From the sequence record PZ445550.1: 64,000 nt of DNA. The stretch is one strand, 5' to 3'. Shown here in pieces: positions 3,572 to 63,838 of this stretch. The stretch comes from a phage. A model generated the notes under the pieces. The model did no database searches and had not been told where the DNA came from. It saw nothing but the letters and a program-made list of their open reading frames with translations. Both the position numbers and the translations under genes were made by a program. The stretch's first letter is position 1; each line of letters opens with the position of its first letter.

Positions 3572-4204
3572 ATGACAAATGCTGCTATTGACTATAATAA
3601 GTTAAAATCAGCACCCGTTCATTTAGACGCTTATGTTAAGTCTATTGATAGTGAATCCAAAGAAGGGGTTATAAAAATCCGTGGATTCGCTAATACAATT
3701 AGCAAAGATCGCGCTGGTGATGTAATCCCTGCTTCTGCTTGGAAAACATCTAACGCACTTTCCAATTATATGAAGAATCCTATTATTCTTTTCGGACACG
3801 ACCATCGTCGTCCTATTGGTAAGTGCATTGATCTCAACCCTACAGAAATGGGTCTTGAGATTGAGTGTGAGATTTATGAAGGCTCAGATCCTGCGATCTT
3901 TTCTCTAATTAAAAACGGTGTACTGAAAACTTTTAGTATTGGATTCCGCTGTCTAGATGCAGAATGGGATGAAGCTACTGATATATTTATTATTAAAGAT
4001 TTAGAACTATACGAAGTTTCGGTAGTTTCTGTACCTTGTAATCAGGATTCAACTTTTAGTGTAGCTAAAGGTATGAATGGAGCTGAATTTACTGAATGGA
4101 AAAAATCTTTTACTGCAACAAGTTCTAAAGCTGTCCCAGCTCAAGAACGTAATCTTTCTGAACTAGAAAAACTTGCGATAGCTTTAGGCTACGTTAAAGA
4201 ATAA
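3572..4204 (+). CDS. Prohead maturation protease
   Basis: 210 aa, same length as T5 pb11; motif GHDHRRPIGK; immediately upstream of major capsid gene. Confidence 0.8.
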   Translation: MTNAAIDYNKLKSAPVHLDAYVKSIDSESKEGVIKIRGFANTISKDRAGDVIPASAWKTSNALSNYMKNPIILFGHDHRRPIGKCIDLNPTEMGLEIECEIYEGSDPAIFSLIKNGVLKTFSIGFRCLDAEWDEATDIFIIKDLELYEVSVVSVPCNQDSTFSVAKGMNGAEFTEWKKSFTATSSKAVPAQERNLSELEKLAIALGYVKE

Positions 4205-4221
4205 CGGAGAATTATTTAAAA

Positions 4222-5598
4222 ATGACTATTGATATTAATAAGCTGAAAGAAGAACTTGGTCTGGGTGATCTGGCTAAATCTCTGGAAGGTCTTACCGCTG
4301 CTCAGAAAGCTGCAGAAGCTAAGCGCCTACGTGAAGAGCAGGAAGAAAAAGAACTGGCTCGTATGAATGACCTGGTTTCCAAAGCTGTTGGTGAAGATCG
4401 TAAAAAACTGGAAGAAGCTCTGGACTTGGTTAAGTCTCTGGATGAAAAATCTAAGAAGAGCGCAGAACTGTTTGCACAGACGGTAGAAAAACAACAGGAA
4501 ACCATCGTTGGTCTTCAGGATGAAATTAAATCTCTGTTGGCAGCTCGTGAAGGTCGTTCCTTCGTTGGTGACAGTGTAGCTAAAGCACTGTATGGTACTC
4601 AGGAAGCTTTTGAAGATGAAGTTGAAAAACTTGTACTGTTAGCTTATGTAACAGAGAAGGGCGTATTTGAAACTGAACACGGTAAAAACCACCTTAAAGC
4701 AGTAAATAACTCTTCTTCAGTAGAAGTTTCTAGCGAATCTTACGAAACTATTTTCTCCCAGCGTATCATTCGTGACCTTCAGAAGGAACTGGTAGTTGGT
4801 GCACTGTTTGAAGAACTGCCAATGTCCAGCAAGCTGCTGACTATGCTAGTAGAGCCAGAAGCTGGTAAAGCTACTTGGGTAGATGCTTCTACTTATGGTA
4901 CTGATGCTACTACTGGTAATGAAGTTAAAGGTGCTCTGACTGAGATTCAGTTTAAGACCTACAAACTAGCTGCTAAATCCTTCATTACTGATGAAACTGA
5001 AGAAGATGCAATCTTCTCCCTGCTGCCACTGTTACGCAAGCGTCTGATTGAAGCACATGCTGTTTCTATCGAAGAAGCCTTCATGACTGGTGATGGTTCT
5101 GGTAAGCCGAAAGGTTTGCTGACTCTTGCTAGTGAAGATAGTGCTAAAGTTACTACTGAAGCTAAAGCTGATGGTTCTGTTCTGGTAACTGCTAAAACTA
5201 TTTCTAAGCTACGTCGTAAACTGGGTCGTCATGGTCTGAAACTGAGCAAACTGGTACTGATCGTATCTATGGATGCTTACTACGATCTGCTGGAAGATGA
5301 AGAATGGCAGGATGTTGCCCAGGTTGGTAATGATGCTGTTAAACTGCAGGGTCAGGTTGGTCGTATTTACGGTCTGCCGGTTGTAGTTTCTGAATACTTC
5401 CCAGCTAAAGCTAATTCTGCAGAGTTCGCAGTTATTGTCTATAAAGATAATTTCGTAATGCCGCGTCAGCGTGCTGTTACTGTTGAACGTGAGCGCCAAG
5501 CTGGTAAACAGCGTGATGCATACTATGTTACTCAGCGTGTTAACCTGCAACGTTACTTTGCAAATGGCGTTGTATCTGGTGCCTACGCTGCATCTTAA
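4222..5598 (+). CDS. Major capsid protein precursor
   Basis: 458 aa, same length as T5 pb8; coiled-coil scaffold-like N-terminus; E. coli-optimal codon usage; followed by a strong terminator. Confidence 0.85.
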   Translation: MTIDINKLKEELGLGDLAKSLEGLTAAQKAAEAKRLREEQEEKELARMNDLVSKAVGEDRKKLEEALDLVKSLDEKSKKSAELFAQTVEKQQETIVGLQDEIKSLLAAREGRSFVGDSVAKALYGTQEAFEDEVEKLVLLAYVTEKGVFETEHGKNHLKAVNNSSSVEVSSESYETIFSQRIIRDLQKELVVGALFEELPMSSKLLTMLVEPEAGKATWVDASTYGTDATTGNEVKGALTEIQFKTYKLAAKSFITDETEEDAIFSLLPLLRKRLIEAHAVSIEEAFMTGDGSGKPKGLLTLASEDSAKVTTEAKADGSVLVTAKTISKLRRKLGRHGLKLSKLVLIVSMDAYYDLLEDEEWQDVAQVGNDAVKLQGQVGRIYGLPVVVSEYFPAKANSAEFAVIVYKDNFVMPRQRAVTVERERQAGKQRDAYYVTQRVNLQRYFANGVVSGAYAAS

Positions 5599-60713: not shown

Positions 60714-61229
60714 ATGGCTAAGCAGAAAAACGCAAAAACTCAAGCAGCTACTACAGTTAAAACTTTCCCTCAGACTGAAGCTAATCGTAAAGCTCGTTTG
60801 GAACGTCACCTGCGTAAGCATCCTACTGATACGCAGGCTGCACAAGCACTGAATAATCCGGCTCCAATTCGACAGAAGCCGAAGACTAAAAATGCTACCC
60901 GCCAATTCTACAAAATGGTTATGTTTGTAGAAAACTATGGCCACAAAGCTGTCCCAGTAACACTTAGTTTCAACGCTGGTGCTGAGTTGTTTGCTCGCAA
61001 TGGAATGTCCATGAAAGACTACGAGAAAGCAGTTAACCAGAAGCGTAAACCAACGGCAGATGTACTACGTGATACTCGTGGGCAGTTTGGTTCTGTTAAG
61101 CCAAATATCTTCGGTGTAGAGTATAGCAAGGATAATGTTCGTGCTTTATGTTATGGCGTAGGTATTAAATTCACGGGTGATTCCGCTCGAAAATCTACCA
61201 AACCAGCTCGTAAGCGTAAAGGGAAGTAA
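60714..61229 (+). CDS. Hypothetical basic protein
   Basis: 171 aa, Lys/Arg-rich termini, E. coli-optimal codons. Confidence 0.45.
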   Translation: MAKQKNAKTQAATTVKTFPQTEANRKARLERHLRKHPTDTQAAQALNNPAPIRQKPKTKNATRQFYKMVMFVENYGHKAVPVTLSFNAGAELFARNGMSMKDYEKAVNQKRKPTADVLRDTRGQFGSVKPNIFGVEYSKDNVRALCYGVGIKFTGDSARKSTKPARKRKGK

Positions 61230-61232
61230 TAG

Positions 61233-61252
61233 ATAGGGGCGAAAGCCCCTAC
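61233..61252 (+). other. GNRA-tetraloop hairpin (GGGGC-GAAA-GCCCC)
   Basis: Perfect 6-bp GC stem with GAAA loop, no T-run; same element recurs at 61513-61530. Confidence 0.5.
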
Positions 61253-61288: not shown

Positions 61289-61504
61289 ATGTTCTCTAAG
61301 AAACCACGTTCCGTTACTGAAATCGTTGCTTCCTTTACTACTATCACTGATGAACTTCAGGCCCGTATTGAGGCTGATCAGAAAATCGCCGCTGATATTC
61401 AGAAACAGCAGGAAGAACTTGCTCTGAAGTTGGCCGAAACTAATAAGAGTGAAAAATCTGCTCAAACCATTAAGGAAAATATCCTTAAACTGTTGGGCAA
61501 GTAA
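61289..61504 (+). CDS. Hypothetical small coiled-coil protein
   Basis: 71-aa ORF. Confidence 0.4.
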   Translation: MFSKKPRSVTEIVASFTTITDELQARIEADQKIAADIQKQQEELALKLAETNKSEKSAQTIKENILKLLGK

Positions 61505-61512
61505 TTTAAATT

Positions 61513-61537
61513 AGGGGGCGAAAGCCCCTCTTATTTG
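61513..61537 (+). terminator. Hairpin terminator (GGGGC-GAAA-GCCCC plus T-rich tail)
   Basis: GC stem with GAAA loop followed by TCTTATTT. Confidence 0.45.
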
Positions 61538-61545
61538 GAGAAACT

Positions 61546-61782
61546 ATGCGTAATTTTGTTGCAAAAAATGATTTTAACCGTGCTAGCACTCATAAGTCAG
61601 CTAGAGACTACACACGGCTTTCTAGCCATGAGGTAATGGATACTTGTTATGAAGAGCTAGAGGATAGCTGGGATGAATGGCCAGATTTCTTTATGGAAGA
61701 AAACTGGGATGTTAGTGAGGATATGCTTCCTGGTTTTAAAGACCCCAAGAAGTGGGAGTCTATTAAAGAGACAGCTTTTTAA
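61546..61782 (+). CDS. Hypothetical acidic protein
   Basis: 78-aa ORF. Confidence 0.4.
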   Translation: MRNFVAKNDFNRASTHKSARDYTRLSSHEVMDTCYEELEDSWDEWPDFFMEENWDVSEDMLPGFKDPKKWESIKETAF

Positions 61783-61810
61783 TAGATTTCTATACAATAA
61801 AGGATAAGTT

Positions 61811-62512
61811 ATGAAAGTAAAACCATTTGGTATGTTAGATATTGAATCCCTAGGAACTCCAGGAGATTGTGGTACTACTCATATCGCAATGCCTTCTTTC
61901 GCTTTTGTGGCTATGCACGGAATTGATAAAGATCCAGGGCTGGTATTTGTTACTTTAGATGTGCAAGATCAGCTTAATTCTGGAGCTAAAGTTACAGCAT
62001 CTACTCTAGCATTCTGGATGGATCAGGCTAAGAATAGCCCATCTGCTCTCCACATTATGGAAGCTATGAAGGGATGTAACCCAACTCTAACCGCTTTCCA
62101 AGATGGTAAACATCATTGCACTAATAAACTTGGCTCTAACTATGCTGCCTACTCTATGGTTCAAAACATCATGGAGTTAGCATTAGGAGAGAATGCTCTA
62201 TATTATGGTAATGGCCCAGAGTTTGATATGACTATCTACTCTGCAAATACATTCCATGCTGGAACCAATGAAGAAATAGTTCCGTGGAAATTCTGGAACT
62301 TAGGTAATGTTCGATCACTTCGTAATCTTTGGATGCAAGCTGGCTATAGTTATAAAGATTTAGAGTCTGAAGGTATTAGCTGGGCAAAAGCTAAAATGGA
62401 GAAGATGGACACTATTCGTTATGGAATCTATCCGGTTAAGCACGACCCGGCATTCGATGCCTTAGTTGAAAGTTATTGTGTTGCAGCTATGATCGAAAAA
62501 ATCAAAATTTGA
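61811..62512 (+). CDS. Putative DEDDh-type 3'-5' exonuclease (DnaQ-like fold)
   Basis: Motif I GMLDIESLG (D-x-E), motif II region YGNGPEFD, motif III HDPAFDAL (H-x-A-x-x-D). Confidence 0.45.
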   Translation: MKVKPFGMLDIESLGTPGDCGTTHIAMPSFAFVAMHGIDKDPGLVFVTLDVQDQLNSGAKVTASTLAFWMDQAKNSPSALHIMEAMKGCNPTLTAFQDGKHHCTNKLGSNYAAYSMVQNIMELALGENALYYGNGPEFDMTIYSANTFHAGTNEEIVPWKFWNLGNVRSLRNLWMQAGYSYKDLESEGISWAKAKMEKMDTIRYGIYPVKHDPAFDALVESYCVAAMIEKIKI

Positions 62513-62513
62513 T

Positions 62514-62542
62514 TTGCTATTAGCCCCAAAATTCTGTATAAT
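62514..62542 (+). promoter_or_regulatory. Early promoter
   Basis: TTGCTA, 17-bp spacer, TATAAT, followed by P_N25-like leader ATATTCATAAATTTGAGA. Confidence 0.55.
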
Positions 62543-62581: not shown

Positions 62582-62764
62582 ATGCCAGTATCTAAAAATG
62601 TTCGTAAAAATGGTAAGAAAGCTACTCGTAATCTGGGTATTCGTCGTATGGTTGAACGTCAATCAGGTGTCCAGAAAATCTTTGATCTGCTAAATCGTGC
62701 TAATCCTAAAATTGATAACAGTAAAGATACTGTTCTGCGTACCTTACTGGCAATTGGTCTGTAA
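62582..62764 (+). CDS. Hypothetical small basic protein
   Basis: ATG 62582 behind AAAAGGAAAACAAT, the same leader as at 60700. Confidence 0.4.
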   Translation: MPVSKNVRKNGKKATRNLGIRRMVERQSGVQKIFDLLNRANPKIDNSKDTVLRTLLAIGL

Positions 62765-62816: not shown

Positions 62817-63455
62817 ATGACTACTCGTATTTCTAAAACTCGTGCTCTGGCAACCATCAAATCCCTGGAAGCTAAAATCCGCAAAGCTACCGAACAGCAT
62901 CTACTGATTGCTGTTGGTGAGGGTAAGGATAAAAATAAGGTTGTAGTTGGCGCTGCAATCGAAGTAGATGCTCTGTCTACTCGTATTAAGACAGATTTCC
63001 AGTCTCTGCTGGATATGATGTCCCAGCGTGATCGTATCAAAGCTGCCCTGATTAAGAGCAACGCGGAAACAATCGTTGAGATTGGTTCTCGTAAAATGAC
63101 TGTTGCGGAAGCAATTGAAGCTAAACGTTCTATGGAGCTTAAAGCTCAGTTGCTGGCTAATATGCGTAAGCAGTTCCATGCTGCTACTGTTAAATTTAAC
63201 ACGCAAAAAGCACAGTTTGATGCTAAATACGAGCGTTTGCAGGATAGCATGGCTACCCGTGATAAGAAAACTTCCGAAGATGAAGTTAAAATGCAGCTCA
63301 ACCTGTTGGAACTTAAGAATACCCCATTCTTGATTGACCCGCTGGAGCTGGAAAAGCTGATCAAGCAGCATGACGAGGAATACCAGGACTTTGCAACAAA
63401 TGTTGATTTTGTTCTGTCTGAGTCTAATGCTTCTACTTTTATCGAAGTAGAGTAA
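62817..63455 (+). CDS. Hypothetical protein
   Basis: 212-aa ORF, E. coli-optimal codons, AGGAAG ribosome-binding site. Confidence 0.5.
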   Translation: MTTRISKTRALATIKSLEAKIRKATEQHLLIAVGEGKDKNKVVVGAAIEVDALSTRIKTDFQSLLDMMSQRDRIKAALIKSNAETIVEIGSRKMTVAEAIEAKRSMELKAQLLANMRKQFHAATVKFNTQKAQFDAKYERLQDSMATRDKKTSEDEVKMQLNLLELKNTPFLIDPLELEKLIKQHDEEYQDFATNVDFVLSESNASTFIEVE

Positions 63456-63838
63456 TAATTTAAAAGCTAGTAAATCGGTAGACGAAAGCCCAAGCATCTT
63501 ACCTCGCAGCAGCGGTTGAAATACGAGGTTAAATAAGACCGCTGACCATACTATAAAGTATAATCTATTGGAGATTATGTTTATTACATCAGACATTTAA
63601 TCTGACACGTAAAAACAAAGCGTGGTTGGTAGTACCAACACAACTTCAAAGATCAACATTTAAGTATGAAAGCTGAAAAGTTTAAAGAACTCAAACTTCT
63701 AAACTTCTAAAGCTAAAAGATGCAAAGTATTCGTTGATGATTCAAACCCTAGATCAAAGGTACATGGCTCATAAGATATGGCCTGTGGCGCCTCTAGGCT
63801 GTTTATCGGTTTACTAGTTTCATAATTTAAAAATGTAT

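Follow-up and report, generated by a model that had tools for sequence, protein, structure and literature searches.

The early region of T5-like phages contains a core gene whose product goes by different names. Among 30 sampled T5-like records, 21 call it a (putative) metallopeptidase, three an exonuclease, and one a 3'-5' exoribonuclease, which raises the question of what this protein is and what it may do during infection. We address this question for the ORF at 61811-62512 of a 64,000-nucleotide stretch of phage DNA (PZ445550.1; hereafter, the window), which an earlier note had proposed to encode a DEDDh-type 3'-5' exonuclease in an early + strand module. The ORF is the orthologue of T5.087 in the T5 RefSeq record, where it is named "exonuclease," and of ORF082 in the T5 record AY587007. 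Over the surrounding 2.9-kb stretch, the window and Escherichia phage KookSpook (PP925842.1, 111,871 bp) are 100% identical; KookSpook is a T5-like phage in which the same ORF is CDS0124, "exonuclease," and whose minus strand corresponds to the + strand of the window. The same stretch shares 85-98% identity with over 400 T5-like Escherichia and Salmonella phages, and tblastn detected the gene in 578 phage records, including phages of Klebsiella, Pectobacterium, Vibrio, and Erwinia. Between the window and T5, the gene differs at 79 nucleotide and 12 amino acid positions, with a dN/dS of 0.042. The gene is real and well conserved in T5-like phages.

Records of this gene differ in where it starts. 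In the window, a Shine-Dalgarno sequence ahead of the first ATG supports the long start, which keeps the D-x-E motif (Table 1). AY587007 instead places the start of ORF082 (coordinates 4079-4747 in that sequence) 78 nt downstream, so that the catalytic D-x-E is lost. In the same record, the predicted "early promoter T5P24" sits within the true ORF082 coding sequence, and ORF082 as annotated runs 48 nt past the end of the tblastn match.

Table 1. Features of the exonuclease locus. Positions are those of the window unless a contig is named.
Feature	Position	Strand	Remarks
T5.089, 171-aa basic protein, DUF7022 (253.7 bits)	60714-61229	+	conserved trio with DUF7230 and exonuclease
Second GGGGCGAAAGCCCCT hairpin	61236-61250		identical copy
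71-aa ORF, PHROG 2380	61289-61504	+	bracketed by the two hairpins
GC-rich hairpin GGGGCGAAAGCCCCT, then T-rich tract	61515-61529	.	terminator scan; conserved in T5
T5.088 / ORF083, 78 aa, weak DUF7230 match	61546-61782	+	conserved exonuclease neighbour
Shine-Dalgarno AAGGA	61800-61804	+	6 nt 5' of the ATG at 61811; read from sequence
233-aa DEDDh 3'-5' exonuclease CDS	61811-62512	+	ATG to stop, stop codon included
Exo I, LDIESLG (D10, E12)	61835-61855	+	both invariant in 27 homologues
Codon of D10	61838-61840	+	in GMLDIESLG, residues 7-15
Codon of E12	61844-61846	+	in GMLDIESLG, residues 7-15
Exo II, GNGPEFD (D139)	62207-62227	+	G133, N134, G135, F138, and D139 invariant in homologue alignment
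HAGTNEEIVPW, residues 149-159	62255-62287	+	regex match to zinc-carboxypeptidase signature pattern
Exo III, HDPAFD (H211-x4-D216, the "h" of DEDDh)	62441-62458	+	H211 and D216 invariant
Codon of H211	62441-62443	+	in HDPAFDAL, residues 211-218
Codon of D216	62456-62458	+	in HDPAFDAL, residues 211-218
Promoter-like TTGCTA-17-TATAAT	62514-62542	+	directly 3' of exonuclease stop, 5' of a small ORF ending at 62764
212-aa ORF = T5.085, PHROG 1491 (2e-81)	62817-63455	+	syntenic 213-aa gene in L007-L009
NADAR/cREC_REC/Sequestin variable-slot genes	L006 3619-4871, 5498-5695; L008 7020-7565

Profile searches and structure prediction both place the protein among the DEDDh enzymes. As the earlier note had suggested, we compared it with HMMs of DEDD exonuclease families: Pfam PF16473 (Rv2179c-like 3'-5' exoribonuclease) matches residues 8-180 at 36.3 bits, above its curated gathering threshold of 27 bits, and this domain is precomputed for most homologues. 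PHROG 255, "exonuclease," covers the whole protein (E 8e-52). An AlphaFold2 model built from an alignment of 27 homologues, with identities down to 35%, is of high confidence (mean pLDDT 90.9, pTM 0.91) and has an RNase H-like alpha/beta fold, as that note's proposal predicts. In a Foldseek search against the PDB, the top match of this model is T4 DexA (8KEL; 1e-5), followed by RNase T, and 3'hExo is also found. Its neighbours among viral predicted structures comprise T5-like "metallopeptidases," jumbo-phage proteins, and proteins named DexA, exodeoxyribonuclease, or 3'-5' exoribonuclease.

Other searches returned less. A single-sequence search of the PDB gave only spurious matches to repeat proteins (designed armadillo proteins) over residues 151-177, and at E <= 10 the family profile reached no PDB sequence apart from PCNA noise at E > 1. 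Pfam RNase_T (PF00929) does not match at E <= 1, and NCBIfam and PADLOC yielded no match for the exonuclease, its fused form (see below), or T5.088. In a representative library of 1.84 billion proteins, a profile of the T5 clade found 12 proteins at E <= 1e-30, 34 at <= 1e-10, and 867 at <= 1e-3, which indicates that the T5 clade is a small, distinct subfamily within a large family. Membership of the protein in the Rv2179c/DexA family (PF16473, PHROG 255) of the DEDDh superfamily is supported.

The catalytic residues agree with this assignment. Both motifs that the earlier note had picked out are there. The D-x-E of GMLDIESLG holds up, with D10 and E12 invariant in the 27 homologues; HDPAFDAL is likewise present, although its pattern is H-x-x-A-x-D, the canonical H-x4-D, and not the H-x-A-x-x-D that had been written down. 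The middle motif, Exo II with D139, had been missed; hhalign aligns its GNGPEFD to the MSFD motif of T4 DexA. For Exo III, the T4 DexA counterpart is HDSIHD, at the equivalent C-terminal helix. Together, D10, E12, D139, H211, and D216 form a complete DEDDh set that is invariant across the homologues. Short motifs are weak and unspecific evidence by themselves: the regular expression DxE...F[DE]...Hx4D matches three of the 55 long stop-free stretches in the window (the exonuclease and two others) and appears in six of 20,000 shuffles of the exonuclease sequence. What carries the assignment beyond chance is the combination of the invariant residues with PF16473, PHROG 255, the DEDDh fold, and the low dN/dS, and the central proposal of a DEDDh-type 3'-5' exonuclease stands on these grounds.

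How, then, did the "metallopeptidase" label arise? It is used in the majority of the sampled records and traces to InterPro IPR000834 (zinc carboxypeptidase), an entry given in both T5 records. Residues 149-159 fit a carboxypeptidase signature pattern modelled on PROSITE PS00133. This is a chance match and the probable source of the propagated label: the family does not conserve H149 of the pattern, and DexA shares its P-W-K-F-W part as a motif. No Pfam peptidase family matches at E <= 1, the protein folds as a DEDDh exonuclease, and no peptidase is found among the structure matches. The HMM results and the fold refute a zinc metallopeptidase, and we give this reading practically no credence; of a zinc carboxypeptidase of family M14 (Peptidase_M14, with an H-x-x-E...H zinc site), only the 11-residue pattern match is seen. 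The label goes back to a pattern match of the 2004 era, to which one T5 record adds the truncated start. It should read DexA/Rv2179c-family DEDDh 3'-5' exonuclease. Such an assignment is already found in RefSeq, Pfam, and PHROG, and in this respect the exonuclease is known and ordinary.

T4 DexA is the closest solved structural relative, and it is remote by sequence. The T4 protein (from NC_000866) hits PF16473 at 79.9 bits and PHROG 255 at 3.6e-91, so both groups are common to the two enzymes. Direct comparison is less clear: hhalign gives 61% probability (E 8e-5) over 136 columns that cover the first two motifs only, and with HMMER the T5-clade profile fails to reach T4 DexA, the profiles of one clade missing the other. 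Short Rv2179c-like proteins are matched by both the T5 clade and DexA, and the sequence link between these two is transitive through them. Judged by sequence, the T5 clade is isolated, and its similarity to characterised members is remote. Structure-based identity between the exonuclease and T4 DexA (PDB 8KEL; PMC12153337) is only about 15%. Unlike T4 DexA, the T5 clade carries an additional beta-hairpin/helix element (about residues 75-125) that is inserted between Exo I and Exo II; the two also differ at the C-terminus, and T4 DexA has no DUF7230 partner.

Mycobacterium tuberculosis Rv2179c (PDB 4HEC), the founder of PF16473, is a bacterial exoribonuclease with a shorter, 155-residue chain, and DexA, ERI1, RNase T, and Orn are all structurally more similar to the exonuclease than it is. 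RNase T, Orn, REXO2, and Pol III epsilon show no significant sequence match to the exonuclease, which is not a member of those families.

T5 DNA is unmodified. T4 DexA acts on DNA and discriminates 5hmC-DNA by a dimer/tetramer switch (PMC12153337), and this discrimination between 5hmC and C has no counterpart in T5 since there is no modified DNA to distinguish. The T4 gene is reported to be essential only in optA-mutant hosts (PMC12153337). In a CRISPRi-ART knock-down screen of T5, T5.087, annotated there as "exonuclease, phrog_255, Ambiguous," scored "Not Fit" (PMC11879866, supplementary files 8 and 16). This indicates that the exonuclease is dispensable on the laboratory host, which would parallel T4 dexA. 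In the literature, we found no main-text mention of T5.087, T5.088, or DUF7230; the gene is listed only in the CRISPRi-ART supplement, and the HIDEN-SEQ preprint does not cover T5 genes.

Altogether, the best explanation, and one that we consider likely, is that the ORF encodes an active, metal-dependent DEDDh 3'->5' exonuclease of the Rv2179c/DexA family with an accessory, DexA-like role. While family, fold, catalytic residues, conservation, and laboratory dispensability are observed, we infer the catalytic activity, the substrate, and any cooperation with T5.088. As in other family members, D10, E12, D139, and D216 would hold two divalent cations and H211 would serve as the general base, so that a free single-stranded 3' end would be shortened one nucleotide at a time to release 5'-mononucleotides. 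The enzyme would be expressed in the early (second-step-transfer) phase, jointly with T5.088. Its most likely role would be to trim 3' ends or to convert short ssDNA or oligonucleotides to mononucleotides; by-products of replication or recombination are candidate substrates, and RNA 3' ends may be as well. That this role would be accessory is suggested by the genomic setting, the relationship to DexA, and the dispensability.

The Pfam family takes its name from an exoribonuclease, so RNA can be defended as a substrate just as well as DNA. With Rv2179c, RNase T, and Orn among the relatives, RNA 3' ends are a serious alternative, and an enzyme acting in the manner of these relatives could process the 3' trailers of phage tRNAs, primer fragments left by RNase H, or nanoRNAs. 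As the main function, we regard this as possible but unlikely: the tRNA genes are linked by proximity only, the sequence offers no discriminator for 2'-OH recognition, and the best structural match is a DNA exonuclease, the sole phage enzyme of the family that has been characterised (PMC12153337).

Two further roles had been raised speculatively in the earlier note, and neither fares well. One is the clearing of nucleotide second messengers. DEDDh exonucleases require a free 3' end, which cyclic messengers do not have, so clearing of the cyclic kind is mechanistically unlikely. An anti-defence enzyme could instead destroy ssDNA of the retron/DRT type or linear oligonucleotide messengers, possibly guided by the DUF7230 peptide, and we consider this improbable too. 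No PADLOC family matches at E <= 0.1, and profiles of defence and counter-defence exonucleases (Cap18, CRISPR-associated DEDDh) gave no family match: the Cap18 score is no better than that of generic DEDDh enzymes, which makes Cap18 a generic fold neighbour. Furthermore, the exonuclease is a syntenic core gene in a block of nucleotide and DNA metabolism rather than part of a variable island.

The other is host DNA degradation. T4 DexA contributes to host-DNA scavenging (PMC12153337), and by analogy with this closest solved structural relative, the T5 enzyme could take part in breaking down the host chromosome. This is very unlikely. In T5, the process requires first-step-transfer genes only, taking place within the first minutes and depending on the pre-early gene A1, and it proceeds in A2 mutants, which never inject second-step DNA (10.1101/866236); the A2 phenotype by itself largely refutes this role. 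Because T5.087 lies in the second-step DNA, it cannot be required. In addition, host DNA is not salvaged in T5, unlike in T4; the breakdown products are excreted and not reused (10.1101/866236), so the "scavenging" rationale of T4 is not directly transferable. The accessory role in end trimming or oligonucleotide turnover remains our preferred reading.

The surrounding genes bear out the placement in an early + strand module. In T5, the exonuclease lies in the early region, 3' of nrdB, frd, thy, and rnh and on the same strand, sharing a block with the genes for ribonucleotide reductase, DHFR, thymidylate synthase, and RNase H. Its position is kept in divergent metagenomic T5-like contigs (synteny was compared in L005-L009), where it comes after RNR small subunit, DHFR, thymidylate synthase, RNase H, DUF7022, and DUF7230 and before a 213-aa protein, cREC_REC, and endolysin, in this order. 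The hairpin upstream of T5.088 resembles a terminator and bounds the T5.088-T5.087 pair on its upstream side. Of the DUF7022-DUF7230-exonuclease trio, T5.089 is the sole member that scored "Fit" in the T5 CRISPRi-ART screen (PMC11879866).

Several small features around this block deserve description in their own right. The second hairpin lies 279 bp from the first, and the two copies bracket the 71-aa ORF; at this site, T5 has a single hairpin and no ORF. The 71-aa ORF looks like a small inserted gene cassette with a duplicated terminator-like hairpin. Relatives carry other small genes in this slot, e.g., "Sequestin" (PF21825) in L006, to which the 71-aa ORF shows no similarity; Sequestin was not found at this slot in the window. 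More broadly, divergent T5-like relatives have NADAR, cREC_REC, and Sequestin genes in variable slots around the exonuclease block, and these family names suggest nucleotide- or NAD-related conflict functions. On the downstream side, the T5 RefSeq record has a promoter at the place equivalent to our promoter-like sequence, overlapping the 3' end of T5.087. Farther on, KookSpook CDS0121 is annotated as a 231-aa ORF on the - strand (62901-63596); since the 212-aa ORF on the + strand is conserved, the minus-strand call is probably wrong. The PHROG and RefSeq name "tail fiber protein" looks doubtful for T5.085, an early-region gene. In one T5-like sequence, L012 (MG969412.1, 68942-77061), the exonuclease region is split into many tiny ORFs of 29-109 aa, among them fragments of RNR, cREC_REC, and endolysin and a 39-aa DUF7230 piece, which is typical of a frameshift-rich assembly and not of real gene decay.

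The upstream neighbour T5.088 adds one new detail: in T5-like phages of Klebsiella, it is fused to the exonuclease, whereas the window has them as separate genes 28 nt apart. In the Klebsiella phages, a 334-aa "exonuclease" (e.g., vB_Kpn_K7_rec14 gp69) occupies the same genomic position; its nuclease domain is orthologous (~41% identity), and the T5.088-like DUF7230 region forms a covalent N-terminal extension. Such N-terminal fusions occur in five homologue clusters of 324-334 aa (P0015, P0019, P0020, P0022, and P0025) and also in Klebsiella phage L005 (as a 1005-nt CDS) and contig L006. The genes are adjacent in L008 and L009, and L007 has an unassigned 92-aa ORF at the position of T5.088. 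T5.088 itself matches positions 75-147 of PHROG 255, an N-terminal extension of that profile.

The first 26 residues of T5.088, MRNFVAKNDFNRASTHKSARDYTRLS, are nearly invariant; a variable, acidic linker comes next, and then a P-[LF]-K-D-P motif. The N-terminal peptide of DUF7230 has the almost invariant consensus MRNFVAKNDFNRASTHKSxxDYTR and is predicted to be intrinsically disordered. When the 334-aa fusion was modelled, this conserved motif came out with a pLDDT < 50, and the model gives no ground for claiming that it docks onto the nuclease domain. As modelled, the DUF7230 segment behaves like a disordered peptide motif and not like a domain packed on the nuclease. The T5.088 N-terminus also matches the starts of the small-protein PHROGs 5724, 1359, and 15229. 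An ArfA-like reading of the basic N-terminal motif, as a ribosome-rescue tail, was rejected (0.1% hhalign probability).

DUF7230 genes are also found apart from the exonuclease: beside DUF7022 alone in L013 and L014, and by themselves in the Kuttervirus L010. Stand-alone versions of 37-76 aa occur in contigs of non-T5 phages. This weakens the case for an obligatory partnership of DUF7230 with the exonuclease, and the functional link between T5.088 and the exonuclease is therefore suggestive, not established. Like T5.087, T5.088 scored "Not Fit" in the CRISPRi-ART screen (PMC11879866). It is conceivable, though a long shot, that T5.088 and T5.087 make up a two-part nuclease (one-part in the Klebsiella phages) in which the DUF7230 peptide would anchor the exonuclease to a specific partner of host or phage origin, or direct it there. 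If so, the enzyme would have a dedicated job, such as counter-defence or processing one particular nucleic acid, and not a generic part in clearing oligonucleotides. The natural fusion offers a concrete handle for finding such a partner.

The practical value of these results lies in annotation hygiene, as a core early gene of T5-like phages is mislabelled in about two-thirds of the sampled GenBank records. For the biology of these phages, T5-like genomes encode a structural counterpart of T4 DexA although T5 salvages no host DNA, which suggests that phages may use enzymes of this class for more than host DNA scavenging.
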